Of a stretch of 31,491 bases of DNA, positions 1 to 22,994 are shown piece after piece. The stretch's first letter is position 1. Every line of letters starts with the position of its first letter. The DNA is from Escherichia coli (GTDB lineage Bacteria > Pseudomonadota > Gammaproteobacteria > Enterobacterales > Enterobacteriaceae), in assembly GCF_003334255.1 (NCBI RefSeq), contig NZ_QOWU01000059.1. One strand, written 5' to 3'. The position numbers and the translations under genes were made by a program. Under the pieces are notes generated by a model. The model was given only the letters and a program-made list of their open reading frames with translations. It was not told the DNA's origin and made no database searches.

Positions 1-63
1 GACATCAGTACCCGTGATGAAGGCGGGGGCGGAAAGGTCGTGGTTATCGGGCGGCAGGGGTAA
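1..63 (+). CDS. 3' end of a phage tail assembly protein I-like gene (partial; start lies upstream of the window)
   Basis: Frame 1 runs open from base 1 to a TAA at 61-63 (…DISTRDEGGGGKVVVIGRQG*). It sits directly upstream of the J homolog, as gene I does in lambda. Identification rests on position and on the Gly-rich C-terminus only. Confidence 0.4.
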   Translation, partial: DISTRDEGGGGKVVVIGRQG

Positions 64-406
64 AAAGAATAAAAAAATCCCGCAGTGATCGCGGACAGGA
101 ACTGCGGGAGAGTTACGAAGATTAAGTGTAAGGAATTATTCTTATATCACGACAAAAAAATTAACGCAGAGAAATTATACGCGCCACAGTCAGTTTGTGA
201 AAATGTGAAGATATTCAGAATTTTTATGCCATTACCGGTTTTAACCAACAGGATTATCGGTGGGCATGAAAGAAAACCCCGGTATCTGCTGATACCGGGG
301 TTTCTCTTTAGCATGGCAGAAATGTGTTTCATGCTTTTCGGGCGAAGGATATCCGACTTCTGTACGGAATGGCAAGTGGCGGTTAATTTATTCAGGGGAA
401 GGCTGT

Positions 407-3400
407 ATGGGAAAAGGTGGCGGTAAGGCACACACGCCTCGTGAGGCGAAGGATAATCTCAAATCCACGCAGATGATGAGCGTGATTGATGCGATTGGTG
501 AGGGACCGATAGAAGGTCCGGTGAAGGGACTGCAGAGTATCCTGGTGAACAAAACCCCGCTGACGGACACGGACGGTAATCCCGTGATACACGGTGTGAC
601 GGCGGTCTGGCGCGCCGGGGAGCAGGAGCAGACACCACCGGAAGGCTTTGAGTCCTCCGGTGCTGAAACCGGACTGGGCGTGGAAGTGACGAAGGCAAAA
701 CCGGTGACGCGCACCATTACGTCCGCGAACATTGACCGCCTGCGGGTTACCTTCGGGGTGCAGTCACTGGTGCAGACCACGTCAAAGGGTGACCGAAACC
801 CGACATCCGTCCGCCTGCTGATTCAGTTACAGCGTAACGGTAACTGGGTGACAGAAAAGGATGTCACCATTAACGGCAAGACCACCTCGCAGTTTCTGGC
901 GTCGGTGATTCTGGATAATCTGCCTCCCCGTCCTTTTAACATCCGGATGGTCCGGGAGACAGCGGACAGCACCACGGACCAGCTGCAGAATAAGACGCTG
1001 TGGTCGTCATACACCGAAATCATCGATGTGAAACAGTGCTACCCGAACACGGCCATTGTGGGGCTGCAGGTGGATGCGGAGCAGTTCGGCGGCCAGCAGA
1101 TGACGGTGAACTACCATATCCGCGGTCGCATCATCCAGGTGCCGTCAAACTATGACCCGGAAAAACGCACGTACAGTGGTATCTGGGACGGCAGTCTGAA
1201 ACCGGCATACAGCAACAACCCGGCCTGGTGCCTGTGGGACATGCTGACTCACCCGCGCTACGGCATGGGAAAACGTCTGGGGGCGGCGGATGTGGACAAG
1301 TGGGCGCTGTATGCCATCGGGCAGTACTGCGACCAGACGGTCCCGGATGGTTTCGGGGGGACCGAGCCGCGGATGACCTTTAATGCGTACCTGGCACAAC
1401 AGCGTAAGGCGTGGGACGTTCTCAGTGATTTCTGCTCTGCGATGCGCTGTATGCCGGTATGGAACGGTCAGACGCTGACGTTCGTTCAGGACCGCCCGTC
1501 GGATGTGGTGTGGCCGTACACCAGCAGCGATGTGGTGGTGGATGATAACGGCGTGGGGTTCCGCTACAGCTTCAGTGCCCTGAAGGACCGGCACACGGCG
1601 GTGGAGGTGAATTACACCGACCCGCAGAACGGCTGGCAGACCTCCACGGAACTGGTGGAAGACCCGGAAGCCATACTGCGCTACGGACGCAACCTGCTGA
1701 AGATGGACGCGTTCGGCTGTACCAGCCGCGGTCAGGCCCACCGTGCCGGGCTGTGGGTGATAAAGACCGAACTGCTGGAAACGCAGACGGTGGATTTCAC
1801 GCTCGGGTCACAGGGGCTGCGTCACACACCCGGTGACATCATTGAAATCTGTGATAACGACTATGCCGGGACCATGACCGGCGGACGTGTCCTGTCCATC
1901 GATGCCGCCAGCCGTACCCTGACGCTGGACCGGGAGGTGACACTGCCGGAGACCGGCACGGCCACTGTTAATCTGATTAACGGCAGCGGTAAGCCGGCGA
2001 GCGTGGCCATCACCGCACACCCCGCGCCTGACCGGATACAGGTCAGCACCCTGCCGGATGGTGTGGAGACATACGGTGTGTGGGGACTCTCCCTGCCGTC
2101 ACTGCGTCGTCGCCTGTTCCGCTGTGTCTCCATCCGGGAAAACACGGACGGCACCTTTGCCATCACGGCGGTGCAGCACGTACCTGAAAAAGAAGCCATC
2201 GTGGATAACGGGGCCCGCTTTGAGCCGCAGTCAGGCACCCTGAACAGCGTTATCCCACCGGCAGTGCAGCACCTGACGGTGGAGGTGAGTGCAGCTGACG
2301 GTCAGTATCTGGCACAGGCGAAATGGGACACGCCGCGGGTGGTGAAGGGTGTGCGCTTCAGTCTGCGTCTGACCAGCGGAAGCGGAGAAGACAGCCGTCT
2401 GGTGAGCACCGCCAGCACCGCAGACACGGAGCACCGTTTCAGCGGCCTGCCACTGGGGGAATACACCCTGACGGTCAGGGCGATTAACAGTTATGGCCAG
2501 CAGGGCGAACCGGCCACCACCACGTTCAGGATTAACGCACCTGCAAAACCCGCCACCATTGAGCTGACGCCGGGGTATTTTCAGATAACGGCGGTCCCGC
2601 GTCTTGCGGTGTATGACCCGACGGTACAGTTTGAATTCTGGTTCTCAGAAAAACGCATCACGAACACAGCACAGGTGGAAAAATCTGCCCGTTATCTGGG
2701 GACCGGCAGTCAGTGGACTGTCCATGGGAGCCGGATTAAGCCGGGGACGGATTTCTGGTTTTACGTGCGAAGCGTCAACCTGGTGGGAAAATCTGCTTTT
2801 GTGGAAGCCAGCGGGCAGCCCAGCAATGATGGTGAAGGGTATCTGGAAATTTTCCGGGGGCTGATAGATGAGACGCTTCTGGGCCAGGCACTGAAAGAGC
2901 GCATTGATGCTTCAGCGCTGCGTACGGAGGTCACGCAACTGGAAGAAGACATCCGTCAGCGGATGGACACGGATATCGCAGAAGTGACCCGGAAAATCGG
3001 GAAGGCGGAAAACAGCCTCACGCAGCTGGTTGCGAAAAAGAATGAGGACCAGACACTGGCCATCGCGCAGGTGAGCCAGAAAGTGGACCGGGTGAGCAGT
3101 GAAATCTCACAGACTGTCAGCCAGGGGCAGTCAGAAAACGCCCGACAGATAGCACAGGTCCGCCAGTACGTGGATAAAAAAGGGAGTGAAATTACCTCGA
3201 CCACGGATAAAAAGCTGGGTGACCAGGCCGTGACCATACAGCAAATCCAGCGGGTTCAGTCAGACACGCGCAATGAGCTGAATGCCATGTATATGCTGAA
3301 GGTGCAGAAAACAAAAAACGGTATTCCCTATGTGGCCGGGATTGGCGCGGGGATTGAGGATGTTGATGGTCAGACGCTGAGCAGTATTCTGCTGCAGGCG

Positions 3401-4099
3401 GACCGTATCGCGATGATTACCCCGGAGAACGGCAACACCACGCCGCTGTTTGTGGCGCAGGGGAATCAGCTGTTCATGAACGACGTGTTCCTGAAGCGAC
3501 TGTTTGCGGTGAGCATCACGTCATCCGGCAATCCTCCTACGTTTTCCCTGACGCCGGATGGCAGGCTGACAGCCCGCAATGCGGATATCAGTGGAGCCAT
3601 CACGGCGAATACCGGCACGCTCAATAATGTCACCATTAACGAGAACTGTGTCATCAGAGGGAAACTGTCTGCAAACCAGATTGAAGGCGATCTCGTTAAA
3701 ACAGTGGGTAAGGCTTTCCCCCGTGACTCCCGTGCACCGGAGCGTTGGCCATCAGGAACCATTACCGTCAGGGTTTATGACGATCAGCCGTTTAACCGGC
3801 AGATTGTTATTCCGGCGGTGGCTTTCAGCGGTGCCAGACATGAGCGGGAGAACAGCGATACTTATTCGTCATGCCGCCTGATAGTACGGAAAAACGGTGC
3901 TGAAATTTATAACCGTACCGCGCTGGATAATACGCTGATTTACAGTGGTGTTATTGATATGCCTGCTGGTCGCGGCCACATGACGCTGGAGTTTTCTGTA
4001 TCAGCATGGTGGGTAAATGGCTGGTATCCCACAGCAAGTATCAGCGATTTGCTGGTTGTTGTGATGAAGAAAGCCACTGCAGGCATCACGATTAGCTGA
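407..4099 (+). CDS. J: Phage host specificity protein J (tail tip / central tail fiber), 1230 aa
   Basis: N-terminus [22 protein letters not shown]… and long collinear stretches (…[22 protein letters not shown]…, …[24 protein letters not shown]…, …[18 protein letters not shown]…) match lambda gpJ as I recall it. AGGGGAAGG Shine-Dalgarno lies ahead of the ATG at 407. About 100 aa longer than lambda J, with extra coiled-coil-like sequence near aa 820-950. Confidence 0.93.
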
Positions 4100-4118
4100 A
4101 TTTTATAACCCCAATACG

Positions 4119-4142
4119 GGCGCCAGAAATGGCGCCTTTTTT
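4119..4142 (+). terminator. Intrinsic terminator-like hairpin after J (GGCGCC-agaaat-GGCGCC followed by TTTTTT)
   Basis: Read directly: 6-bp GC stem 4119-4124 / 4131-4136, 6-nt loop, then a T6 run at 4137-4142. Confidence 0.55.
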
Positions 4143-4166
4143 ATTGCAGAAAAGCGAGAGGTAATT

Positions 4167-4766
4167 ATGCGTAAAGTTTGTGCAGCCATTTTGTCCGCAG
4201 CCATCTGTCTGTCCGTATCCGGTGCGCCTGCATGGGCGTCTGAACATCAGTCCACACTGAGCGCGGGGTATCTTCATGCCCGTACGAACGCTCCCGGCAG
4301 CGATAATCTGAACGGGATTAACGTGAAATACCGTTATGAGTTTACGGACGCGCTGGGGCTGATTACGTCCTTCAGTTATGCCAATGCTGAGGATGAGCAA
4401 AAAACGCACTACAGCGATACCCGCTGGCATGAAGATTCCGTGCGTAACCGCTGGTTCAGCGTGATGGCGGGGCCGTCTGTACGCGTGAATGAATGGTTCA
4501 GCGCGTATGCGATGGTGGGTGTGGCTTACAGCCGTGTGTCGACTTTCTCCGGGGATTATCTCCGCGTAACTGACAACAAGGGGAAAACGCACGATGTGCT
4601 GACCGGAAGTGATGACGGTCGCCACAGCAACACGTCTCTGGCGTGGGGGGCTGGCGTGCAGTTTAACCCGACCGAATCCGTAACCATTGACCTTGCTTAT
4701 GAAGGTTCCGGTAGTGGCGACTGGCGAACGGATGCATTTATTGTTGGTATCGGATACCGTTTCTGA
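4167..4766 (+). CDS. lom: Lom/Ail-family outer membrane beta-barrel protein (lambda lom homolog), 199 aa
   Basis: Signal peptide MRKVCAAILSAAICLSVSGAPAWA, C-terminal aromatic residue (…GIGYRF), GAGAGG Shine-Dalgarno, and the J-lom-stf order typical of lambdoid phages. Sequence resembles lambda Lom. Confidence 0.88.
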   Translation: MRKVCAAILSAAICLSVSGAPAWASEHQSTLSAGYLHARTNAPGSDNLNGINVKYRYEFTDALGLITSFSYANAEDEQKTHYSDTRWHEDSVRNRWFSVMAGPSVRVNEWFSAYAMVGVAYSRVSTFSGDYLRVTDNKGKTHDVLTGSDDGRHSNTSLAWGAGVQFNPTESVTIDLAYEGSGSGDWRTDAFIVGIGYRF

Positions 4767-4870
4767 CAACAGACGCCGATTTATCTTCTGTAAATATTGT
4801 TATGATACGCAGGTTCATCCACCTTATGGGGTGAACTGCGTTTGAGGAAACGTAAAGTTACACTGTCCTG

Positions 4871-4903
4871 AAGCCCGTGGCGTCACTGCTGCGGGCTTTT
4901 TTT
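4871..4903 (+). terminator. Intrinsic terminator-like hairpin between lom and stf
   Basis: aAGCCCG…CGGGCTt stem (4871-4877 / 4892-4898) with further wobble pairs inward, followed by T7 at 4897-4903. Confidence 0.55.
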
Positions 4904-4917
4904 ATTGGTGGAAAAGT

Positions 4918-7900
4918 ATGACAGTAAAAATTTCTGGCGTGCTTAAAGATGGCACAGGAAAACCAGTACAGAACTGCACCATTGTGCTGAAGGCCAGACG
5001 AACCAGCAGCACGGTGGTGGTGAACACGGTGGCCTCTGAAAATCCGGATGAAGCCGGACGTTACAGCATGGATGTTGAGCATGGCCAGTACAGCGTCACC
5101 CTGCTGGTTGAAGGTTTTCCGCCTTCACATGCCGGGACCATTACCGTCTATGAAGGTTCCAGACCAGGTACGCTGAATGATTTTCTCGGTGCCATGACGG
5201 AGGATGATGTCCGACCGGAGGCACTGCGCCGCTTTGAGCAGATGGTGGAAGAGGTGTCACGTAACGCCTCCGCGGTTGCACAGAATACGGCAGCCGCGAA
5301 AAAATCAGCCAGCGATGCCAGTGCATCAGCCAGCGAGGCGGCAACTCATGCAACCGATGCTGCAGCCTCAGCACGTGCCGCCAGCACGTCAGCCGGACAG
5401 GCCGCGTCGTCGGCTCAGTCAGCGTCTTCCAGCGCAGGAACGGCATCGACAAAGGCCCGTGAAGCAGCAAAAAGTGCTGCTGCTGCAGAGTCATCAAAAA
5501 GCGCGGCAGCTACCAGCGCCAGTGCCGCGAAAACGTCAGAAACGAATGCCGCAGCATCACAAAAATCGGCAGCCACTTCTGCATCCACAGCGACCACGAA
5601 GGCGTCAGAAGCTGCCACCTCGGCACGGGGTGCGGCGGCCTCAAAAGAGGCAGCGAAATCTTCAGAAACGAATGCATCATCAAGTGCCAGTAGTGCAGCT
5701 TCCTCGGCAACGGCGGCAGGAAATTCCGCGAAGGCGGCAAAAACGTCCGAGACGAACGCTAAGTCTTCTGAAACAGCAGCGGGACAGAGCGCCTCAGCTG
5801 CGGCAGGTTCAAAAACAGCGGCTGCATTATCTGCCAGTGCCGCGTCAACAAGTGCCGGGCAGGCCTCAGCCAGTGCCACCGCCGCCGGAAAATCGGCAGA
5901 AAGCGCCGCATCATCCGCTTCAACAGCCACAACGAAAGCTGGCAAAGCCACTGAGCAAGCCACTGCAGCAGCGAGGTCTGCTTCTGCAGCAAAAACCTCT
6001 GAAACAAATGCAAAGACTTCAGCAGACAATGCTGCTTCCTCTAAGGCGGCAGCCGCATCGTCAGCCAGTTCAGCGGCGTCATCGGCATCATCTGCGTCTG
6101 CTTCAAAAGATGAGGCGACCAGACAAGCGTCAGCAGCGAAAGGTAGTGCCACGACAGCAACAACGAAAGCATCAGAGGCGGCAGGCAGTGCGACGGCTGC
6201 ATCTCAGAGCAAAGTTGCTGCTGAATCCGCGGCAACGCGCGCCGAGACAGCAGCAAAACGGGCAGAGGATATTGCATCCGCCGTGGCGCTGGAGGATGCG
6301 AGCACGACGAAAAAGGGGATAGTACAGCTCAGCAGTGCAACAAACAGCACCAGTGAAAAGCTGGCGGCAACGCCAAAGGCAGTTAAAACTGTTAAAGATA
6401 GTTCAGTTCAAAAAACTGGCGACACAATGGGAGGGCAGTTAAAAATCAGCACGATAAATGCTCTTCGAATATTCAACCAAGCCTTTGGCCTTATTTTTAG
6501 GCGTTCCGAAGATCATCTTCATCTTATTCCGACTAATGAAGGGGAGGGGGAAAATGGAGACATCGGTTCATTAAGACCATTCTCTATAAACTTAAGATCA
6601 GGGTTGGTGTCCATCGGTAATGGACTAAAAGTTGGTGGTAGTGTTACTGGTAATTTGACCGGAAACGCAGATACTGCGACCAAGATCAAGACAGCACGTA
6701 AGATTGGGGGCGTGGCATTTGATGGATCGGCAGATATCAACTTGCCTGGAGTCAACGCTACCGGTAATCAAAACACTACAGGTAATGCTGCGACCGCCAC
6801 GAAACTTCAGGCAGCCAGAACGATTAACGGTGTGTCATTTGATGGTAGTGCAAATATCACATTGACCCCTTCAAATATTGGGGCATTGGCATTAACTGGA
6901 GGGACTCTTTCAGGTGGTTTAACTGCTGCTGGTGAGGTTATTTCAAGGTCAGCAAATGGTCTGCGTATTGCCTATGGCAACTATGGATTCTTTATCCGAA
7001 ATGATGGATCAAACACATATTTTATGTTGACAGATTCGGGTAACAGTCTTGGTACGCACAATAGCTTAAGGCCGTTTATAATTAGTAACCATACTGGCAA
7101 TGTTACAATTGCAACTAAATTAAACGCGAGTGGTGGTATCACTGGATCTTTATCGGGTAATGCAAGCACAGCAACCAAATTGCAAACTGCAAGGACAATT
7201 AACGGCGTAAAATTTGACGGCTCGGCAAATATTGAAGCGTTTCCGCCAGGTGTTCCGCTGCCGTGGCCATCAGATACACCACCTGCAGGTTATGCGATCA
7301 TGCAGGGGCAGACGTTTGATAAGGCAGCATATCCGAAACTGGCTATTGCCTATCCTTCAGGTGTTATTCCAGATATGCGCGGCTGGACAATCAAGGGCAA
7401 ACCCGCCAGTGGCCGGGCCGTATTGTCTCAGGAACAGGACGGCATAAAATCGCACACCCACAGCGCCAGCGCATCCAGTACGGATTTGGGGACGAAAACC
7501 ACATCGTCGTTTGATTACGGCACTAAATCCACGAATAACACCGGGGCGCATACGCACAGTCTGAGTGGCTCTACGGGGTCTGCCGGTGTTCATACTCATG
7601 GTAATGGTATTCGTTGGCCAGGAGGCGGCGGTTCTGCGTTAGCATTTTATGATGGCGGTGGGTTCACTTATGTCCAGAATTCACAGTATCAAGTAAGCCC
7701 GGAGACTTCTTCCTATAGATCGTATTATCAACGTATTCAGACACAGTCAGCAGGTGCTCATACCCACTCGCTGTCTGGTACTGCAGCAAGTTCTGGCGCA
7801 CATGCACATACTGTAGGTATTGGTGCGCATACGCACTCCGTTGCGATTGGTTCACATGGACACACCATCACCGTTAACGCTGCGGGTAACGCGGAAAACA

Positions 7901-7944
7901 CCGTCAAAAACATCGCATTTAACTATATTGTGAGGCTTGCATAA
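4918..7944 (+). CDS. stf: Side tail fiber protein (Stf-like), 1008 aa, mosaic
   Basis: N-terminus [22 protein letters not shown]… and C-terminus …[31 protein letters not shown] match lambda Stf as recalled. Contains an Ala/Ser/Thr-rich low-complexity segment, three copies of a G-N-x-x-TATK(L/I)-x-(T/A)AR-x-I-(N/G)GV-x-FDGSA(N/D)I phage tail-fiber repeat (about nt 6650-7240), and His-rich HTHS/HAHT repeats near the C-terminus. Confidence 0.9.
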
Positions 7945-8528
7945 TGGCATTCAGAATGAGTGAACAAGCACGGACCATAAAAATTTATAATCTGCTGGCC
8001 GGAACTAATGAATTTATTGGTGAAGGTGACGCATATATTCCGCCTCATACAGGTCTGCCAGCAAACAGTACCGATATTGCACCACCAGATATTCCTGCTG
8101 GCTTTGTGGCTGTTTTCAACAGTGATGAGGCATCGTGGCATCTCGTTGAAGACCATCGGGGGAAAACGGTTTATGACGTAGCGTCAGGGGACGAGTTATT
8201 TATTTCTGAACTCGGTCCGTTACCGGAAAATGTTACCTGGTTATCGCCGGAAGGGGAGTTTCAGAAGTGGAACGGCACAGCCTGGGTGAAGGATACGGAA
8301 GCAGAAAAACTGTTCCGGATCCGGGAGGCGGAAGAAACAAAAAACAACCTGATGCAGGTAGCCAGTGAGCATATTGCGCCGCTTCAGGATGCTGCAGATC
8401 TGGAAATTGCAACGGAGAAAGAAACCTCATTGCTGGAAGCCTGGAAAAAGTATCGGGTGTTGCTGAACCGTGTTGATACATCAACTGCACCTGATATTGA
8501 GTGGCCTACGAACCCTGTCAGGGAGTAA
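7944..8528 (+). CDS. tfa: Tail fiber assembly protein (Tfa), 194 aa
   Basis: [34 protein letters not shown]… is near-identical to lambda Tfa as recalled. The start overlaps the stf stop in a TAATG arrangement (translational coupling). Confidence 0.92.
8367..8528 (+). repeat. Direct repeat copy A (3' end of tfa), ~160 bp
   Basis: Nucleotide alignment by eye: gagcatattgcgccgcttcaggatgctgcagatctggaaattgcaacgg… versus gagtatattgcgccactgcaggatgctgtagatctggaaatcgcaacgg… at 9416; roughly 85-90% identity, same orientation. Confidence 0.75.
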
Positions 8529-8542
8529 TCATTGGGATTATG

Positions 8543-8590
8543 CCGCAGCACGTCTTAAGCAAGAACGTGCTGCGGTTGGATGCTATTTTT
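8543..8590. terminator. Hairpin plus T-run between convergent tfa (+) and methyltransferase (-); likely bidirectional terminator
   Basis: Perfect 11-bp stem CCGCAGCACGT (8543-8553) / ACGTGCTGCGG (8565-8575), 11-nt loop, then …tgctatttttt to 8590. Confidence 0.5.
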
Positions 8591-9251
8591 TCCCTGAAGC
8601 GGAAAACATTACTACAGTACCTTGAACCTTGGTTTTAACATTCTCGAAATGCTCTGAGAGTATATGTGTTAAGCCTTCTTCGGAATCTTTTGTGTTTGAA
8701 AAGATGCCTTTCTGATTGTAAATGCGCATCAGTTTTTGACCGAAGCTATTGTGCACAACTCCATCGCCAAGAATTGTGGCTCCGTATAGAGTTCCATCGT
8801 CAGTTAAGGCCTGCGCCGCATTGCGTATTACACAGCTTTTTGTAGATATATTTCCAGGCAGGCAGTGAAGAAGGTAAAACATGGAAATGGAATCAAATTG
8901 ACCATGTAACGCCGCGGGATAAGGTTCAAAAACATCATGGCTAATTTTATGTTTAATTTTTGATTCCCCAGCCCTTGTAGATGCCGCGTTCAGGCTAGCT
9001 TCGTTCAAATCCATTAAAGATATCAGACTACTCTCAGGTACGTGAGTAAGGTAAAACCCAGTTCCAACACCAATATCCAGATGGTTGTTACCTACATGTT
9101 CCAGAAAGTGTGGAAGAAGGTGTTCCTTTGTAGGACATCCCCATGCAAGCCGATTTGATACTCCCAAAACCCACCAGTCATAAAGCTTTAGGGTAAGTGG
9201 TGTGTAAATTTTAGCCCCATCATCTGTGTTTTTTTTCATTGATTTCACCAT
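8583..9251 (-). CDS. Class I SAM-dependent methyltransferase (prophage cargo gene), 222 aa from the first ATG
   Basis: Glycine-rich SAM-binding motif I (…HLDIGVGTGFYL…) followed by an acidic residue at the end of the next beta-strand (…ISLMDLNE…). Opposite strand to the tail genes and visibly more AT-rich than its flanks. The start is ambiguous: ATG at 9249-9251 (MVKS…) or ATG at 9236-9238 (MKKNT…, preceded by GGTGA at SD spacing). Confidence 0.75.
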   Translation of the reverse strand: MVKSMKKNTDDGAKIYTPLTLKLYDWWVLGVSNRLAWGCPTKEHLLPHFLEHVGNNHLDIGVGTGFYLTHVPESSLISLMDLNEASLNAASTRAGESKIKHKISHDVFEPYPAALHGQFDSISMFYLLHCLPGNISTKSCVIRNAAQALTDDGTLYGATILGDGVVHNSFGQKLMRIYNQKGIFSNTKDSEEGLTHILSEHFENVKTKVQGTVVMFSASGKK

Positions 9252-9307
9252 GTTATAGTTTTATTTGTGAATTAAATCAATTATGGCGATGAATTACAAG
9301 GGGTTAA

Positions 9308-9574
9308 ATGCTGCCGCAGCATAGCGATATTGAAATAGCCTGGTATGCTTCGATACAGCAGGAGCCGAATGACTGGAAGACCGTCACCACACAGTTCCAC
9401 ATCCAGGAATTCAGTGAGTATATTGCGCCACTGCAGGATGCTGTAGATCTGGAAATCGCAACGGCGGAAGAAAGATCGTTGCTGGAGGCATGGAATAAAT
9501 ATCGGGTATTGTTGAATCGTGTTGATACATCAACTGCACCTGATATTGAGTGGCCGACTTCACCTGCAGAGTAA
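9308..9574 (+). pseudogene. Partial second copy of tfa (C-terminal domain only, 88-aa ORF)
   Basis: C-terminal ~50 aa ([47 protein letters not shown]…) parallel the C-terminus of the Tfa at 7944-8528. The N-terminal part has no Tfa N-domain, so it is probably a remnant. Confidence 0.6.
9416..9574 (+). repeat. Direct repeat copy B (3' end of the tfa fragment)
   Basis: See copy A. The two copies bracket the methyltransferase gene. Confidence 0.75.
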
Positions 9575-9610
9575 TCAACGGCGCAGGGATGATATTTTGT
9601 GCTTGAAGTG

Positions 9611-9640
9611 CCTCCCCGACCATTCAGATAGTCGGGGAGG
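9611..9640. other. Perfect 10-bp stem hairpin (CCTCCCCGAC-n10-GTCGGGGAGG) near the prophage/chromosome junction
   Basis: Read directly. No clean U-tract on either side, so its role (terminator, att-associated structure) is open. Confidence 0.35.
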
Positions 9641-9805
9641 GGTATTGGGATTATACGCAATCAGTTTTAGTTAAAGACCGAAGCTCTCGAAAAATCTTTC
9701 TCCAAAACCAGAATGGAATTGATTGATTTTGATAGGATCTATAACGCCGTTACCTTAAACGGCAAAACCACTCAAAAACAAACTTAATGCATTGAATATA
9801 AAGGA

Positions 9806-10669
9806 TTAATCATCTAATTCGCTCACCTTCTTATTCAGCAGACGAGAAGCGCGCCAGTAAACCAGCAACATCAGGCCCATTACGATAGTCAGCGTAATGC
9901 TGGTGGCTGCACCAAATGGCCAGTCACGAATATTGAGGAACTGTACCTTGATGACGTTACCGATCAGCAGGTTTTTCGCACCGCCCATCAGGTCGGACAC
10001 ATAGAACAGGCCCATCGCTGGCAGCATCACCAGCAAACATCCGGCAATAATTCCCGGCATCGTCAGTGGAATAATGATACGGATAAAAGTCTGTAACTTG
10101 CTGGCACCGAGATCGCGCGCCGCCTCAAGCAACGGCTTATCCAGTTTTTCGATACTGGAGTACAGCGGCATCACCATAAACGGTAGCAGAATGTAAACCA
10201 GACCGATAATCACCGCACTGGGCGTGAACATGATACGAATTGGTGTGTCGATAACGCCCAGCCAGAGCAAAAACTCGTTGAGATAGCCTTTGGTGCTGAG
10301 GAAAATTTTCAGCCCGTAGATGCGAATCAGTGAGTTGGTCCAGAAGGGAACAATCAGCAGAAACAGCAGCAGCGGACGCACCTTGTGTGGCAGCTTCGCC
10401 AGAAACCAGGCAAACGGGTAGCCCAGCACCAGGCAGGCGAGGGTGGCGATCAGCGCCATATTCAGCGAGTGCAATAGCACTTCAAAATAGAGCGGATCGA
10501 GCAGACGCGTGTAGTTATCCAGCGTAAAGACCATTTTGACGAAACTGGCGTCGTCGCGGGTCAAAAAGCTGGTGCCAATGATCATCAGGTTGGGCAGAAA
10601 GACAAACAACACAAGCCAACCGACAATAGTGACAATCACTACATTCTGGAACTTACTTGTGTTCTTCAT
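9806..10669 (-). CDS. potB: Spermidine/putrescine ABC transporter permease PotB
   Basis: Multi-pass permease sequence (…[20 protein letters not shown]…[21 protein letters not shown]…) directly downstream of, and overlapping, potA as in potABCD. The 287-aa ORF from the first ATG may exceed the true length; the real start could be an internal GTG/ATG. Confidence 0.85.
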
Positions 10670-11789
10670 CAGCCAGTACGACCTCCCAGCTTTCTACCCA
10701 ATTAATGGCCATTTTTTGGTCGAGAGAGTGGTCAAAGTCAGGGTCGTCTTCATTGAAGAATTCGCTGACCATCACCATCTTGCCATTTTCCAGTTCAACA
10801 ACCGACTCCAGCGTCATGCCTTTGTAGTTACGCTCACGAACGTAACCAATCAGCCCTTCAGCGTGGTTGTCGTCGTTAATCTCTTCAACACGTAAGTCTT
10901 CCGGGCGCAGCAGAACATGCAGTTTTTGCCCCGGTTCAACGGCGAAGTTAACGTAGATATTACATTCGCGGCCTTCAACGTTGGCGCGTACGCGCTGCTC
11001 GTCTAGACGTTCGATGACAGTGGCGTTAAACATATTGATTTCGCCAATGAAGCCGGCAACAAACAGGTTTTTCGGCTCTTCGTAAATTTCGCGCGGTGTA
11101 CCATCTTGCTCAATACGACCCTCGCGCATCACCACAATCCTGTCTGACATGGTGAGCGCTTCTTCCTGATCGTGAGTGACAAAGACGAAGGTAATACCAA
11201 GCTTACGCTGTAACGCTTTCAGCTCGTTCTGCATTTGCTTACGCAGTTTGTAATCCAGCGCTGAGAGCGACTCATCCAGCAACAACAGACGAGGCTTGTT
11301 AACCACCGCGCGAGCAATGGCGACGCGTTGCTGTTGACCACCAGAGAGCTGATGCGGTTTACGTTGAGCGAAGGTTTCCAGTTGCACCATCCGCAGGGCT
11401 TCCATCACGCGGGGCGTAATTTCAGCAGCGGGGGTTTTTTGCATGCGCAACCCAAAGGCCACATTTTCGAACACGGTCATGTGGGGGAAAAGTGCGTAGC
11501 TTTGGAAAACAGTGTTCACATAGCGGTTTTCCGCCGGAACGTGGGTGATGTCCTCGTTATCCAGCATGATGCGTCCGGAATCAACAGTTTCCAGACCTGC
11601 AATCAGGCGAAGAACGGTTGTTTTACCGCAGCCAGAAGGGCCAAGCAGCGTGAGGAACTCGCCATTGTTGATAGTCAGATCCAGCTGGGGAATGACCTCT
11701 TTACCATCAAAGCATTTGCGAATTCCCGCCAATTGCACCAGCGGTGAAAGCGAACTCGGTTGTTTATTCAATTTTTTACTCTGTCCCAT
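10653..11789 (-). CDS. potA: Spermidine/putrescine ABC transporter ATP-binding protein PotA, 378 aa
   Basis: Walker [13 protein letters not shown] signature [14 protein letters not shown], Walker B LLLLDE; length and sequence match E. coli PotA. Confidence 0.93.
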
Positions 11790-12038
11790 GTAAACGCAAC
11801 GGATGGCTTACCGATGCGGGGTTTGTGGTTAACCACCTTGGTGACTCTTAATGAGGGCGGTAATTCTACGGCAAACCGCTTGAATCGCCAATCTTTGTTG
11901 TGAATTACTGGCTTAGCTTTATATTCATTAAGGTAATGCTGATAAATATTCCCGCTTGCAGGGGTAAAAGTGACCTGACGCAATATTTGTCTTTTCTTGC
12001 TTCTTAATAATGTTGTCACAAAAAGTGAGGGTGACTAC

Positions 12039-13265
12039 ATGGATAAACTACTTGAGCGATTTTTGAACTACGTGTCTCTGGATACCCAATCAAAAGCAGG
12101 GGTGAGACAGGTTCCCAGCACGGAAGGCCAATGGAAGTTATTGCATCTGCTGAAAGAGCAGCTCGAAGAGATGGGGCTTATCAATGTGACCTTAAGTGAG
12201 AAGGGCACTTTGATGGCGACGTTACCGGCTAACGTCCCTGGCGATATCCCGGCGATTGGCTTTATTTCTCATGTGGATACCTCACCGGATTGCAGCGGCA
12301 AAAATGTGAATCCGCAAATTGTTGAAAACTATCGCGGTGGCGATATTGCGCTGGGTATCGGCGATGAAGTTTTATCACCGGTTATGTTCCCGGTGCTGCA
12401 TCAGCTACTGGGTCAGACGCTGATTACCACCGATGGTAAAACCTTGTTAGGTGCCGATGACAAAGCAGGTATTGCAGAAATCATGACCGCGCTGGCGGTA
12501 TTGCAACAGAAAAAAATTCCGCATGGTGATATTCGCGTCGCCTTTACCCCGGATGAAGAAGTGGGCAAAGGGGCGAAACATTTTGATGTTGACGCCTTCG
12601 ATGCCCGCTGGGCTTACACTGTTGATGGTGGTGGCGTAGGCGAACTGGAGTTTGAAAACTTCAACGCCGCGTCGGTCAATATCAAAATTGTCGGTAACAA
12701 TGTTCATCCGGGCACGGCGAAAGGAGTGATGGTAAATGCGCTGTCGCTGGCGGCACGTATTCATGCGGAAGTTCCGGCGGATGAAAGCCCGGAAATGACA
12801 GAAGGCTATGAAGGTTTCTATCATCTGGCGAGCATGAAAGGCACCGTTGAACGGGCCGATATGCACTACATCATCCGTGATTTCGACCGTAAACAGTTTG
12901 AAGCGCGTAAACGTAAAATGATGGAGATCGCCAAAAAAGTGGGCAAAGGGTTACATCCTGATTGCTACATTGAACTGGTGATTGAAGACAGTTACTACAA
13001 TATGCGCGAGAAAGTGGTTGAGCATCCGCATATTCTCGATATCGCCCAGCAGGCGATGCGCGATTGCGATATTGAACCGGAACTGAAACCGATCCGCGGT
13101 GGTACCGACGGCGCGCAGTTGTCGTTTATGGGATTACCGTGCCCGAACCTGTTCACTGGCGGTTACAACTATCATGGTAAGCATGAGTTTGTGACTCTGG
13201 AAGGTATGGAAAAAGCGGTGCAGGTGATCGTCCGTATTGCCGAGTTAACGGCGCAACGGAAGTAA
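12039..13265 (+). CDS. pepT: Peptidase T (tripeptide aminopeptidase), 408 aa
   Basis: [21 protein letters not shown]… matches E. coli PepT. Start chosen at ATG 12039 (GTGAGGGTGA Shine-Dalgarno upstream) rather than the longest-ORF start at 11997. Confidence 0.9.
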
Positions 13266-13273
13266 GCGAAAAG

Positions 13274-13298
13274 GGATGCGGCATGTGATGCCGCATCC
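13274..13298. terminator. Hairpin between convergent pepT and roxA (GATGCGGCAT-gtg-ATGCCGCATC)
   Basis: 11-bp stem read directly; sits in the 48-bp gap between two convergent genes. Confidence 0.45.
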
Positions 13299-13313
13299 GG
13301 CTTAAATCCAAAC

Positions 13314-14435
13314 TTACCCTTCGAAGAACCAATACCCGCTATTGACCAGCGCCGCGAGCATCGCGAGGAATGACGGATCTTCCAGCGCATCGCCAAAATT
13401 CTCCGCAGTCAGCGCAATGTTGCTGGCGAGTGCATCCAGTGCCGGACGGTGCGGGGAATCGATCTTCTCACCATTGGCATACACGTCGTCGCCAATGCGC
13501 AATACGCGCAGACCACCCAGGCGCACCAGCACTTCACCTTGTTTCAGCGCATCGTAGATTTCATCCGGCTGATAAGGCGGCTCTGGCGGCGCGATATCCA
13601 GTTCATGACGTGACTGGGATATAAACTCGCCAAACCATTGCTTAAAGTGTTCCGGCTGGTTGATCAATTCGAGCATCATCTCACGCAGTTTATCCATCTC
13701 TTGCGGCAGAACATCCGCAGGATGAGCGCGAGGTGGAACATCCGGATCGCTGTAGTAGTTGCCGCCCAGTTCACGTTGCAGCACATAATCGGCAAATCCA
13801 CTAATCAGTTCCCGCGTATTTGGCGCGCGAAAGCCCACGGAATAGTTCATCGCATTTTCCAGCGCGTAGCCTTCATGCGGGAATCCTGGCGGAATATAAA
13901 GAATATCGCCAGGCTCCAGCTCTTCATCGATGATGGCTTCGAACGGATCGACCTGTAACAGATCCGGGTGTGGGCAGTGCTGTTTCATTTGCAGCTTTTC
14001 GCCCACTCGCCAGCGACGACGTCCGGTACCCTGAATGATAAACACGTCGTACTGATCGAGATGCGGGCCGACGCCGCCGCCAGGTACAGAAAAAGAGATC
14101 ATCAGATCATCAATACGCCAGTCCGGTAGTTCACGGAACGGTCGCATCAGCGCGGCGGTCGGCTCATGCCAGTGATTTACTGCTTGCACTAACAATGACC
14201 AGTTAGTTTCACCGAGATGATCGTAGCTTTCGAACGGACCGTGGCTGACCTGCCATTTGCCATCCTGGTGACTGACCAGTCGACTGTCGACTTCGCTTTC
14301 CATCGCCAGACCCGCCAACTCGTCTGGAGAGATCGGGTCAATAAAATTATTAAAGCCGCGTTTTAACACCACCGGGCGTTTCTGCCAGTGACGTTCAAGA
14401 AAATCGGGCCAGTTAAGAGTGAGTTGGTATTCCAT
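13314..14435 (-). CDS. roxA: Ribosomal oxygenase RoxA/YcfD (cupin/JmjC-like 2-oxoglutarate oxygenase), 373 aa
   Basis: MEYQLTLNWPDFLERHWQKRPVVLKRGF… matches E. coli YcfD. Start set at the internal ATG (14433-14435) that gives the K-12 length. Confidence 0.85.
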   Translation of the reverse strand: MEYQLTLNWPDFLERHWQKRPVVLKRGFNNFIDPISPDELAGLAMESEVDSRLVSHQDGKWQVSHGPFESYDHLGETNWSLLVQAVNHWHEPTAALMRPFRELPDWRIDDLMISFSVPGGGVGPHLDQYDVFIIQGTGRRRWRVGEKLQMKQHCPHPDLLQVDPFEAIIDEELEPGDILYIPPGFPHEGYALENAMNYSVGFRAPNTRELISGFADYVLQRELGGNYYSDPDVPPRAHPADVLPQEMDKLREMMLELINQPEHFKQWFGEFISQSRHELDIAPPEPPYQPDEIYDALKQGEVLVRLGGLRVLRIGDDVYANGEKIDSPHRPALDALASNIALTAENFGDALEDPSFLAMLAALVNSGYWFFEG

Positions 14436-14510
14436 GTTAAGCATCCACAGGCTGGTATCTGCAACCGATTATAACGGATGCTTAACGTAATGCGTGAAGT
14501 ATGGACATAT

Positions 14511-15971
14511 TTATTCATCTTTCGGCGCAGAATGCTGGCGACCAAAAATCACCTCCATCCGCGCACCGCCCAGCATGCTCTCTCCGGCGACGATTTTACC
14601 CTCATATTGCTCGGTGATTTCGCGGGCTACCGCCAGCCCTACACCTTGCCCAGGGCGTAAAGTATCAACCCGTTGACCACGGTCGAAAATGACCTCTCGC
14701 TTGCTTAATGGAATACCGGGTCCATCATCCTCGACCACAATATAGAGATGCTCGTCGGTTTGCCTTGCAGAAATTTCGACAAACTCGAGGCAATATTTAC
14801 AGGCATTATCCAGCACATTGCCCATCACCTCGACAAAATCGTTCTGCTCACCGACAAAGCTGATCTCTGGCGAAATATCGAGAGAGATATTGACCCCTTT
14901 GCGTTGATACACTTTGTTCAGCGCCGAGGTGAGATTGTCCAGCAGTGGGGCGACCGGATGCAGCTCGCGGCTAAGCAATGTCCCGCCGCGCATACTGGCA
15001 CGATGCAGGTAGTAGCCAATTTGCTGTGAAATGCGGCTGATTTGCTCCAGCATTACCGGTTCAGCATCACTGACGCTCATCTTTTCACTACGCAGAGAAC
15101 GCAGCGTACTTTGCAGCACCGCCAGTGGCGTTTTCAGACTATGGGTCAGGTCGGTGAGCGTCGTACGGTATTTGTCGTAACGTTCGCGTTCACTTTTTAA
15201 CAATCGGTTCAGGTTTCGTACCAGACTGGTCAGTTCTCGCGTTGTGGCTGGATTGAGCAATTCGCGGTTATGTTCTTCCAGTTCGCGGACTTCTTTTGCC
15301 AGGGCTTCGATGGGGCGTAAACTCCACCAGGCGGCGACCCACAGCAGCGGGATCACTAACAGCAGATTGGCTGAGAGCACATAGATAAACCAGCTCCAGA
15401 CCATATAGGAACTTTTTAGCTCCACCGGAATGGTATCCACCACCACAATGGTTAATTTTGGCATCCGCGATGTTGCCGGGTAGACGTTTACTGCCACCGA
15501 GTGGGTCATCTCCGCGTCGTCGTCATCTTCCCGCACTTCCTGCAACTGTTGCTGTATCGAATGATCTCCACTCAGCAAGAGGCTGGTATCGTTAACATCC
15601 GCTTCAATTTCATGAAAACCATTCGATTTCAGCCAGTCAGGCTGGATCATCTTCATCAGCCAGGGCACGTCACGTTGCGCCCATAAAAGCTGCCCGTTCT
15701 CATCATAAATTAGCGTCATGGTGGGGCTTTGCTTGTCGATATTTTCTGGTAACTCGACATGCAACTTATTGTTTTCCCACTTCGCAAGGGTATAGAACAG
15801 ATTGCTTTCGCCACGTAACAGCCGAAACGTAGTTTTATCGAAACTGACGCTATAACCGATCAGCGCGACCATTCCGTAGGCAAGCGAAAGCACCAGTACT
15901 ACCGCTGCCGTTGCCAACAGAAAACGTACCCGCAGCGAGAGCGGGAAAAAAAGACGCAGTAATTTTTTCAT
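14511..15971 (-). CDS. phoQ: Sensor histidine kinase PhoQ, 486 aa
   Basis: [25 protein letters not shown]…, acidic patch EDDDDAE, H-box [12 protein letters not shown]; full-length match to E. coli PhoQ. Start overlaps the phoP stop (ATGA). Confidence 0.95.
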
Positions 15972-16642
15972 CAGCGCAATTCGAACAGATAGCCCTGGCC
16001 GCGAACGGTGGTAATCACTTCTTGCGGATATTGTGCCTGAATTTTTTTGCGCAGACGTCCCATCAGTACATCAATGGTATGGCTTTCCCGCAGCTCCGCA
16101 TCCGGATAGAGTTGTAGCATTAACGAATCTTTGCTCACCACTTTGCCATTATTGCGTATCAACGTTTCCATAATGGTGTATTCGAACGCGGTCAGTTTGA
16201 TCACTTCGTCATTAATAGATAATTCACGGCGAGAGAGATCAACCTGAAACGGGGGGAGCGAAATGACCTGTGAAGCCAGACCGCTATTACGCCGCATTAA
16301 TGCCTGCATTCGCGCCATCACCTCTTCAATATGAAACGGTTTAGTCACATAATCATCAGCACCGGCACTTAATACTTCGACTTTGTCCTGCCAGCTTTCA
16401 CGGGCGGTTAATACCAGAATCGGCAGTGAAACATCGTTGCTACGCCAGCGGCGAATCAGTGACAGACCGTCCTCGTCTGGCAATCCGAGATCGACAATCG
16501 CAATATCCGGTATATGTTCATTGAGATAATAATCGGCTTCTTTGGCATCTTCTGCGTCATCGACCTGATGACCAGCATCCTGAATCTGAACTTTAAGGTG
16601 GTGACGTAACAACGCATTGTCTTCAACAACCAGTACGCGCAT
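15971..16642 (-). CDS. phoP: Response regulator PhoP, 223 aa
   Basis: [40 protein letters not shown]… is an OmpR-family receiver plus winged-helix protein matching E. coli PhoP. Confidence 0.95.
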
Positions 16643-16702
16643 TTTTATTTCTCCCTGTCTTAATTATTAAAATAGTGTAACGCGATTATGTGGTTATGGG
16701 GG

Positions 16703-16719
16703 TAAACATTAAATAAACC
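16703..16719 (-). promoter_or_regulatory. PhoP box (direct repeat GGTTTA-N5-TGTTTA on the minus strand) upstream of phoPQ
   Basis: Plus strand reads taaacattaaataaacc; the reverse complement is GGTTTATTTAATGTTTA, which fits the (T/G)GTTTA-N5-(T/G)GTTTA consensus, ~60 bp upstream of the phoP ATG. Confidence 0.6.
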
Positions 16720-16810
16720 AGCGGGGAGGGGAGGTAAAGTGAAAAAATAAAAAGCGGATAATCTTAATAAGCAGGCCGGACAGCATCGCCATCCGGCACT
16801 GATACGAGGT

Positions 16811-18184
<1,374 letters not shown>

Positions 18185-18832
18185 TCACAACTCCGGGGTT
18201 AAATGAGCAAGAATTTGTTTTGCCTGAGTGGTCAGGCGATTACGAGAAAACATCAGTTGCAGACGTCCGCCGCCGACCTGGTGCCAGAGCACGGTGGCGC
18301 GAATGCCTGCCAGCAGGGTTGCGCGAACTTTCGCCTGCACTTGTGGGCTTTGCAGTACAGCAGGGGAACCGGTGACCTGAATGCGCGGGCCAAGCGGGCT
18401 AATCACATCAACATAGATAGCAGCCATCGCGCTCATCAGCGTTTCGGACTGTAAATCGAAGTGTTCGAGCTGGCGTTGCAGGCCGTTGATCCGGTTGCCC
18501 AGAGTGTCGAGCGCGCCTTTCGCTGAGGAGAGTTTGCGCTCAAGCACCATCAAGCTGAGTGTGTAGCGGGTTAATTCGGCGTTTAAGCCCTGGCGACTGC
18601 TGGCATTGAGCACGCCGAGCAGGGTTTCCAGCCCGACGCGCAGGTTGGCTTCGCTACCGCCAAAAACCGCCAGCGTCGAGCTGGGGTTCATATCAATAAT
18701 ACTGTTGAGTGAGACGTGTAGCGCATCGGCATCACAATGCCCCTGGTGAGCGAGTTGTTGCACCAGGCGTGCCGACTGACAAATACCGGCCAGGGCGAGG
18801 GTGATGTCATAGTAATTCTTTGCCACGTTCAC
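18185..18832 (-). CDS. hflD: High-frequency lysogenization protein HflD (YcfC)
   Basis: …[46 protein letters not shown]… matches HflD. The true start may be a GTG two codons inside the longest ORF. Confidence 0.88.
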
Positions 18833-18861
18833 TGCTTCCTTGTTTTAAGTAAAGATAATAA

Positions 18862-20483
<1,622 letters not shown>

Positions 20484-21317: not shown

Positions 21318-22568
21318 ATGGAAAGTAAAGTAGTTGTTCCGGCACAAGGCAAGAAGATCACCCTGCAAAACGGCAAACTCAACGTTCCTGAAAATCCGAT
21401 TATCCCTTACATTGAAGGTGATGGAATCGGTGTAGATGTAACCCCAGCCATGCTGAAAGTGGTCGACGCTGCAGTCGAGAAAGCCTATAAAGGCGAGCGT
21501 AAAATCTCCTGGATGGAAATTTACACCGGTGAAAAATCCACACAGGTTTATGGTCAGGACGTCTGGCTGCCTGCTGAAACTCTTGATCTGATTCGTGAAT
21601 ATCGCGTTGCCATTAAAGGTCCGCTGACCACTCCGGTTGGTGGCGGTATTCGCTCTCTGAACGTTGCCCTGCGCCAGGAACTGGATCTCTACATCTGCCT
21701 GCGTCCGGTACGTTACTATCAGGGCACTCCAAGCCCGGTTAAACACCCTGAACTGACCGATATGGTTATCTTCCGTGAAAACTCGGAAGACATTTATGCG
21801 GGTATCGAATGGAAAGCAGACTCTGCCGACGCCGAGAAAGTGATTAAATTCCTGCGTGAAGAGATGGGGGTGAAGAAAATTCGCTTCCCGGAACATTGTG
21901 GTATCGGTATTAAGCCGTGTTCGGAAGAAGGCACCAAACGTCTGGTTCGTGCAGCGATCGAATACGCAATTGCTAACGATCGTGACTCTGTGACTCTGGT
22001 GCACAAAGGCAACATCATGAAGTTCACCGAAGGAGCGTTTAAAGACTGGGGCTACCAGCTGGCGCGTGAAGAGTTTGGCGGTGAACTGATCGACGGTGGC
22101 CCGTGGCTGAAAGTTAAAAACCCGAACACTGGCAAAGAGATCGTCATTAAAGACGTGATTGCTGATGCATTCCTGCAACAGATCCTGCTGCGTCCGGCTG
22201 AATATGATGTTATCGCCTGTATGAACCTGAACGGTGACTACATTTCTGACGCCCTGGCAGCGCAGGTTGGCGGTATCGGTATCGCCCCTGGTGCAAACAT
22301 CGGTGACGAATGCGCCCTGTTTGAAGCCACCCACGGTACTGCGCCGAAATATGCCGGTCAGGACAAAGTAAATCCTGGCTCTATTATTCTCTCCGCTGAG
22401 ATGATGCTGCGCCATATGGGTTGGACTGAAGCGGCTGACCTGATTGTTAAAGGTATGGAAGGCGCAATCAATGCCAAGACCGTAACTTATGACTTCGAAC
22501 GTCTGATGGAAGGCGCTAAGCTGCTGAAATGTTCAGAGTTTGGTGAAGCGATCATCGAAAACATGTAA
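21318..22568 (+). CDS. icd: NADP-dependent isocitrate dehydrogenase, 416 aa
   Basis: [45 protein letters not shown]… is a full-length match to E. coli Icd, with strong codon bias. Confidence 0.96.
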
Positions 22569-22670: not shown

Positions 22671-22994
22671 TTACTTGAGCCCATATGGGCATATTTTTAT
22701 AATGCAACTATTATGTAAACATTTATTTGTTATTTTGCTTTCTCCTGGAGGACACTCTTGACTGCTTTTGAGTAAACTCCATAAATCCTTGTTGAATGGT
22801 GCGATGTGATAAATAGTAATAGGATATTCTTTATCCTTAAGGATAATACCAGACTTAACCGGTGTAAATATACTGCCAGGAGGGAGAAATATAGTAGATT
22901 GATACCAGATGATCATTTTCATATTACCCCATATGGCTGAAAAAGATATACCACATGTAGGTTGAATTACCGTGTCAATTACTATCCACTTCAT
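22671..22994 (-). CDS. iraM: Anti-adaptor protein IraM (RssB inhibitor; YcgW), 107 aa
   Basis: [32 protein letters not shown]… recognised as IraM; AT-rich gene immediately after icd, as in K-12 once e14 is discounted. Confidence 0.8.

Follow-up and report, generated by a model that had tools for sequence, protein, structure and literature searches.

The end of potB in the Escherichia coli DNA analysed here (a 31,491-nt stretch of contig NZ_QOWU01000059.1, hereafter the window) is, almost certainly, the attachment junction of a lambda-like temperate phage that integrated site-specifically in the last codons of the gene (positions 9575–9837). The site is already known and is very common among E. 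coli genomes, and the finding is a correct identification of it. The features on which this reading is built are collected in Table 1.

Table 1. Features at and around the potB junction (window coordinates; elements of the attachment site are candidates named from sequence).
Feature	Position	Strand	Basis or remark
Right-hand 9.8 kb of a 45.3-kb lambdoid prophage	1–9830		J, lom, tail fibre, tfa, methyltransferase moron, tfa remnant, attP arm
5'-truncated tail fibre assembly remnant, last phage CDS before the junction	9308–9574	plus	partial pseudogene in the G1/2 annotation
GC-rich hairpin CCTCCCCGAC...GTCGGGGAGG	9611–9640		phage arm; fold −24.4 kcal/mol, z = −4.0 on the minus strand
Candidate arm-type integrase site TTTTGGAGAAA (TTTTGGAGAA), P' arm	9697–9707	minus	motif invariant in three divergent attL arms
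IHF-like site AATCAATCAATTC (AAAATCAA-CA-TT)	9716–9728	minus	conserved island in alignment A2
CTTTATATTCAA, block conserved in three divergent attL arms	9792–9803	minus	alignment A2
potB, permease	9806–10669	minus	intact ORF, 287 aa; terminal codons phage-derived
Phage-supplied potB 3' end AGC GAA TTA GAT GAT TAA, holding ATGATT	9806–9823	minus	contiguous with the int-side arm in the phage contig
AAGGTG, candidate core-type Int-binding site (C'/B')	9824–9829	minus	sequence; common to attB and attP
TGAATAA, presumed overlap (strand-exchange) region	9831–9837	minus	7-bp block common to attB, attP, attL and attR
potA, ATP-binding subunit	10653–11789	minus	intact ORF, 378 aa; annotated WP_000531601.1

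The host side of the junction is undisturbed. The operon's first gene, potA, adjoins the operon promoter region and encodes the same protein as in BL21(DE3), and it overlaps potB by 17 nt; the first-pass annotation had rightly read both genes as intact and overlapping, and rightly noted that potC fails to follow them. Behind potB lie ~230 nt of AT-rich non-coding DNA and then, in order, the tail-fibre-assembly remnant and the genes for a methyltransferase, tfa, the tail fibre, lom and J. By megablast, homology to every insertion-free genome stops at window position 9824, while the same junction—the exact attL with the tfa remnant—is present in 907 of 5426 complete E. coli genomes; the break at the end of potB is therefore no chance feature. 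A prophage/chromosome junction at the potB 3' end, as the first-pass annotation had proposed, is thus what we find, with homology lost in the last potB codons and phage DNA beyond them. Over window positions 1–20000, E. coli G1/2 (NZ_CP060083.1) and strain G8 each match at 100%; matches at 99% include ATCC 25922, which has this junction too.

Alignment of the four attachment sites places the crossover. Compared with the uninterrupted potB–potC junction of BL21 (attB), the alignment that had been suggested for defining the att core yields TGAATAA, the sole block identical across attB, attP, attL and attR. Specifically, attB reads ...CGTCTGC TGAATAA AAAGGTGGAACTCGAATGATCGGTCG... (in short, CTGC-TGAATAA-AAAGGTGGAACTCGAATGATCGG); attL, in the window, reads ...CGTCTGC TGAATAA GAAGGTGAGCGAATTAGATGATTAATCCTTT... 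(CTGC-TGAATAA-GAAGGTGAGCGAATTAGATGATTAA); attR, in G1/2, reads ...GTCCCGCCTTA TGAATAA AAAGGTGGAACTCGAATGATCGGTCG... (CCTTA-TGAATAA-AAAGGTGGAACTCGAATGATCGG); and attP, in the viral contig IMGVR_UViG_2534681703_000014, has int followed by ...GTCCCGCCTTA TGAATAA GAAGGTGAGCGAATTAGATGATTAATCCTTTATATTCAATG... (CCTTA-TGAATAA-GAAGGTGAGCGAATTAGATGATTAATCC). The base to the left of TGAATAA is bacterial in attL and phage in attR, and at an A/G difference to its right (9830) attL carries the phage G and attR the bacterial A; both exchanges therefore took place within the 7 bp. The megablast breakpoints agree with TGAATAA as the crossover block, and we infer the exact cleavage positions within it from the sequences. 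The original placement of the junction at the potB end stands, but the crossover lies ~20 nt farther upstream, in a block 1–7 nt outside the interval first delimited for it (9575–9830). Beside this block, AAGGTG forms an imperfect inverted repeat around the overlap with CGCCTT, which lies on the other side in attP, and for that reason we propose it as a candidate core-type Int site.

The attP site was located by an exact-pattern search of IMG/VR with the junction predicted for the excised phage (CCTTATGAATAAGAAGGTGAGCG). The search gave one exact match, in which attP reads as predicted from attB, attL and attR. This contig is 45,442 bp long, with one 123-bp sequence present at both ends (L006, 1–123; L013, 11360–11482), which marks it as the excised phage assembled as a circle; its unique length of ~45.3 kb is the size of the prophage. 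Its existence suggests spontaneous excision or replication of the potB phage in one strain or more. The source of the contig is an isolate-genome project. In the GenBank phage collection, queried with int plus the arm and then with the in-silico attP, no free-phage attP was found. The sole full GenBank matches, vB_EcoS-813R8 and vB_EcoS-640R1 (ON470619 and ON470612; partial genomes), were set aside as prophage regions with host flanks and not virions; both records contain the host genes potC, potD, ymfA and ycfZ. A match to phage cdtI was also rejected as an attP, being a partial internal homology between cif and cdtA.

With the crossover upstream of the stop codon, the terminal codons of potB are encoded by the attP arm and the target ORF stays open. 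The PotB protein of the window and that of BL21(DE3) agree in 282 of the 283 residues aligned, as far as ...RLLNKKV, and diverge after it: the former ends in ...KKVSELDD* (287 aa), the native protein in ...KKVELE* (285 aa). Phage DNA from 9830 to the stop codon reads AAG AAG GTG AGC GAA TTA GAT GAT TAA, and the tail SELDD* is encoded in the attP of the circular contig, which bears out the earlier suspicion that the C-terminal codons of PotB may be phage-supplied. Among lysogens the tail follows the prophage lineage and not the host, i.e., KKVSELDD in the window, KKVSEIDD in strain E9 and KKATEIDN in O145, all of them in 287-aa proteins with an acidic end. The string GAATTAGATGATTAA, which the first-pass annotation had quoted as following the potB stop, is indeed present (9820–9806, minus strand, with ATGATT at 9813–9808), but it does not lie behind that stop: it is the last four codons of potB together with the TAA (9808–9806).

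The prophage itself can be followed to its other end in G1/2, where its core-to-core length is 45,304 bp and it lies in direct orientation in the order potA-potB-(prophage)-xis-int-potC-potD-ymfA, colinear from the tail genes through xis-int. It is a complete-looking lambdoid element with terminase, portal, capsid, tail and lysis genes, a Q-like antiterminator, a Cro/CI-type region, dicB, a recE-like exonuclease, xis and int. The integrase is a full-length homologue of lambda Int, i.e., a lambda-family tyrosine integrase with an arm-binding domain. Its N-terminus (residues 1–64) matches Pfam PF09003, Arm-DNA-bind_1 (E = 7.3e-21), and its C-terminus PF00589, Phage_integrase (E = 3.8e-18); residues 26–371 align with lambda Int (1z1b; E = 4e-54), and the catalytic positions R (vtgqR), K (qgKtg), H-x-x-R (tfHeqR), H (llgHk) and Y (tdrY) are conserved. 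The gene upstream of int is an excisionase (phrog_629).

Several further features of the prophage and of the window were recorded along the way. The tail-fibre protein (4918–7944, 1008 aa) contains a ~350-residue Ala/Ser/Thr-rich low-complexity stretch of AAKTSETNA-like units, across which run spurious long ORFs (5204–6322 on the plus strand, 5415–6152 on the minus strand). Downstream of it (region 7944–9574), a 158-nt direct repeat with 86% identity links the 3' end of the full tfa (8352–8509) to the truncated copy (9401–9558), and between the two copies sits the methyltransferase moron (8583–9251, minus strand; 222 aa, class I SAM-dependent; phrog_2132, function unassigned). The moron is on the potAB strand, 555 nt downstream of the potB stop, and could therefore be reached by read-through from the potA promoter. 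The prophage also carries a second iraM homologue (L001, 32237–32572), three tRNA genes, hokD and dicB. The prophage of O145 RM8843 at the same site (L009, 1780–2160) has the type III effector gene espK as its junction-proximal cargo, not tail-fibre genes, and between its arm and that of the window the core, the IHF-like site and the arm-type site alone are conserved. Host iraM, encoding an anti-adapter protein (22671–22994, minus strand), adjoins icd (21318–22568). A second prophage junction at icd was considered and rejected, as iraM, ycgX and bluR lie directly next to it in the manner of e14-free strains; icd has no e14-type element in this strain. The window ends (~30419–31491) within the autotransporter gene ycgH, a pseudogene (frameshift and internal stop) according to the annotation of the identical genome.

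Apart from the potB end, the interval 9575–9830 is attP arm, and the phage arm extends to ~9690. When three otherwise divergent attL arms were compared (window, O145 RM8843 and E9; alignment A2), the conserved islands were the core, the block CTTTATATTCAA, an IHF-like site and an arm-type motif. Measured against the established IHF consensus WATCAANNNNTTR, the IHF-like site is mismatched at the last position in the window and matched there in O145 and E9. The arm-type motif, TTTTGGRGARA, occurs four times in 49.9 kb of prophage-locus sequence (L001), compared with 0.17 occurrences expected, and all four copies fall within the two att arms: one is that of Table 1, and the other three stand in tandem in the int-side arm, outside the window, 46–80 nt from the core. 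These candidate arm-type repeats carry TTTTGGAGA. Judged by motif, these would be the places at which Int and IHF bind.

The same arm contains a GC-rich hairpin ~190 nt from the core, with no T run on the potAB strand; in strain E9 a hairpin spelled differently occupies the same place, and the O145 prophage has none. A search of 9200–10000 by the hairpin-plus-T-run rule returned no intrinsic terminator. The hairpin may end the convergent tail-fibre transcripts and any read-through from potAB, as a terminator or a 3'-end structure, or it may be an element like lambda sib/tI. A second, smaller hairpin (9746–9763) was dismissed, being indistinguishable from shuffles (z = −1.8) and not conserved in the O145 arm.

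The far junction lies beyond the window, and its placement is by proxy, taken from G1/2 as a genome identical over the 20 kb compared. There potC is not contiguous with potB, and it is the other end of the 45.3-kb prophage that carries potC and potD, both intact, with xis-int immediately in front of potC on the same strand; the expectation that the whole prophage separates potC and potD from their promoter was therefore sound. At attR both the potC start (ATGATCGGT) and its native Shine-Dalgarno region (AAAGGTGGAACTCGAATGATC) are intact. PotC and PotD of G1/2 are identical to the proteins of BL21(DE3), which lacks the insertion, and PotC is the same in BL21, G1/2 and EDL933, with PotD intact in all three. 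The int stop codon is 166 nt from potC, and potCD are ~45 kb from the potA promoter. Between int and potC no intrinsic terminator was predicted, and a scan between xis and potC found no consensus sigma-70 promoter; laxer scanning of the xis-int-potC segment gave weak candidates only, e.g., TTGCCA-19-GATAAT inside int.

Published expression data touch on this arrangement in O157:H7. In strain Sakai, potC mRNA was detected and growth-phase regulated (PMC2241611), and the gene numbering of that strain suggests a prophage at potB; in EDL933, for which we verified that int adjoins potC, potABCD are reported, as a group, to be among the genes raised in an rpoS mutant (PMC2907692). The limited literature searched held no measurement of the effect of the split on potCD expression or on polyamine uptake.

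Taken together, these data are best explained as follows. A lambda-family tyrosine integrase, acting with IHF, would exchange strands within the TGAATAA common to attP and attB, and excision would follow the same scheme with the addition of the adjacent excisionase (Xis). We hold with high confidence that integration and excision proceed in this lambda-like manner, in view of the integrase homology and the anatomy of the site. On the potB side the phage arm supplies a substitute potB 3' end, such that PotB remains full-length with the acidic tail SELDD instead of ELE; the IHF-like site and a single candidate arm-type site lie in the same arm. At the other junction, 45.3 kb away, the native potC ribosome-binding site and start are retained behind xis-int. 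The potABCD operon is thereby cut in two, with potAB remaining on the potA promoter. For potCD, which encode the second permease (PotC) and the periplasmic binding protein that is also an autoregulator (PotD), transcription would have to start inside the int end of the prophage or pass through it.

Two readings of the junction itself compete with simple integration, and we give next to no credence to either. In one, the crossover fell at or after the potC start codon, with PotB bacterial up to that point and ATGATT a truncated beginning of potC; the first-pass annotation had taken the hexamer for such a left-behind start. The resemblance behind this idea is real, as native potB and potC overlap in ATGA (GAATGATCGG) and the lysogen reads GATGATTAA at the same relative place, as a remnant would. 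Yet in the circular phage contig all of GAAGGTGAGCGAATTAGATGATTAATCC is joined without a break to the int-side arm and is thus phage-borne; the potB prophage of O145 RM8843 has ATAATT, with no ATG, at the position of ATGATT; homology to attB ends at 9824, before the hexamer is reached; and attR holds the complete native AAAGGTGGAACTCGAATGATCGG, so the bacterial sequence that had lain to the right of TGAATAA is now at the other junction. The attP sequence refutes ATGATT as a potC stump, and the hexamer belongs to the phage. In the other, a large rearrangement (an inversion or inter-prophage recombination) moved potAB away from potCD with no simple integration. In O157:H7, inversions that have a potC prophage at one breakpoint are on record (PMC10925052), but in G1/2 potB and potC flank a single 45.3-kb prophage in direct orientation with complete, colinear gene order, and the att sites fit a simple reciprocal exchange, which refutes such an origin for G1/2 and makes it exceedingly improbable for the window.

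Site-specific integration leaves a separate question, namely how potCD fare in a lysogen. Indirect evidence favours their continued expression, because lysogenic lineages show no decay of PotC or PotD, potC mRNA is present in Sakai and potABCD are reported to respond together in EDL933. Our best guess, to which we give about an even chance, is that transcription reaches them by reading through from the int side of the prophage; the alternatives are that int or the arm contains a weak promoter, or that the insertion is truly polar. Were it polar, potCD would be silent or strongly under-expressed, and about a quarter of E. coli would have no spermidine uptake through PotABCD and would depend on synthesis or on other transporters. 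In favour of polarity, E. coli makes spermidine via SpeE and has other polyamine transporters, and the PotABCD transporter is dispensable in the laboratory; moreover, potCD lie 45 kb from the sole described operon promoter, and the scan found no consensus promoter in the int–potC interval. Against polarity stand the conservation of PotC and PotD across prophage-bearing lineages, with no sign of decay, the regulated potC mRNA of Sakai, the retained native ribosome-binding site and the lack of a predicted terminator between int and potC, and we consider it unlikely. We think it improbable, and advance it as speculation, that prophage state sets uptake, with PotAB and PotCD uncoupled, potCD placed behind the early-left/xis-int unit and the hairpin of Table 1 serving as the new potAB 3' end, after the model of lambda sib, which acts on int as a 3'-end element. 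If this were true, spermidine uptake would be low in stable lysogens, raised on SOS induction and restored on excision, in about a quarter of strains, and the element might count as a regulatory-switch prophage (active lysogeny) like phi10403S at comK, where the function of a host gene hinges on reversible excision or on the state of the prophage.

The frequency of the insertion is considerable. Contiguous potB-potC is found in 3800 of the 5426 complete E. coli genomes; in the remainder each half of the query matches on its own, with the break at the core. The int-attR-potC junction occurs in 1392 (of 5426), including O157:H7 and O104:H4, and EDL933 has, directly upstream of potC, the same excisionase (WP_000003742.1) and a near-identical integrase (matched by product and position; the accession differs). 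In previous studies the site appears under several names: ‘PP_potB’, the prophage at potB in O157:H7 clade 8 (PMC9997748); ‘PhipotB’ of CFT073, 44 kb (PMC3573123); and ‘prophage 5 (potC)’ of O157:H7, a breakpoint of a 650-kb inversion (PMC10925052). The gene potC is also given as a Stx-phage insertion site in LEE-negative STEC (Steyert et al., as cited in PMC8065619).

The potB/potC site is, in short, a hotspot, used by Stx and effector-bearing phages in pathogenic lineages and a breakpoint of large inversions, and a four-subunit transporter operon is halved in about a quarter to 30% (roughly 26–30%) of sequenced E. coli. The practical value of the present analysis lies in annotation: it gives the prophage boundary and attL (core at 9831–9837, arm to ~9690), and it accounts for the many genomes in which PotB has 287 aa and a variant tail, a form that is no sequencing or annotation error. 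With the known potB/potC prophages the element shares the chromosomal site, the position between potB and potC and the int gene adjoining potC; these prophages differ by lineage in cargo, in the junction-proximal arm and in the phage-supplied PotB tail, e.g., tail-fibre genes and a methyltransferase moron here and espK in O145.

Among integration systems at large, lambda (attB between gal and bio) is a close parallel, in that both have a full-length Int or Int homologue with an arm-binding N-domain and catalytic residues, an xis adjoining int and an identical overlap of 7 bp; arm-type repeats on both sides of the core and an IHF-like site are present here as candidates recognised from sequence motifs, and the hairpin ~190 nt beyond our core recalls the position of lambda sib/tI. 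The two differ in core and arm-site sequence, in how many arm sites there are and how they are laid out (three plus one candidates here, two plus three in lambda) and in the target, which in lambda is intergenic and here lies inside a CDS within an operon. In that last respect the phage resembles phage 21 and e14 at icd. Under Campbell's rule, phages that insert into genes carry a substitute 3' end, as those two do at icd, and here likewise the insertion is in the 3' end of a protein-coding gene that phage replacement codons keep intact. The replacement, however, amounts to only ~8 codons at potB compared with ~50 at icd, and whereas icd is monocistronic, potB precedes two more cistrons of the same operon, which the insertion severs from their promoter.
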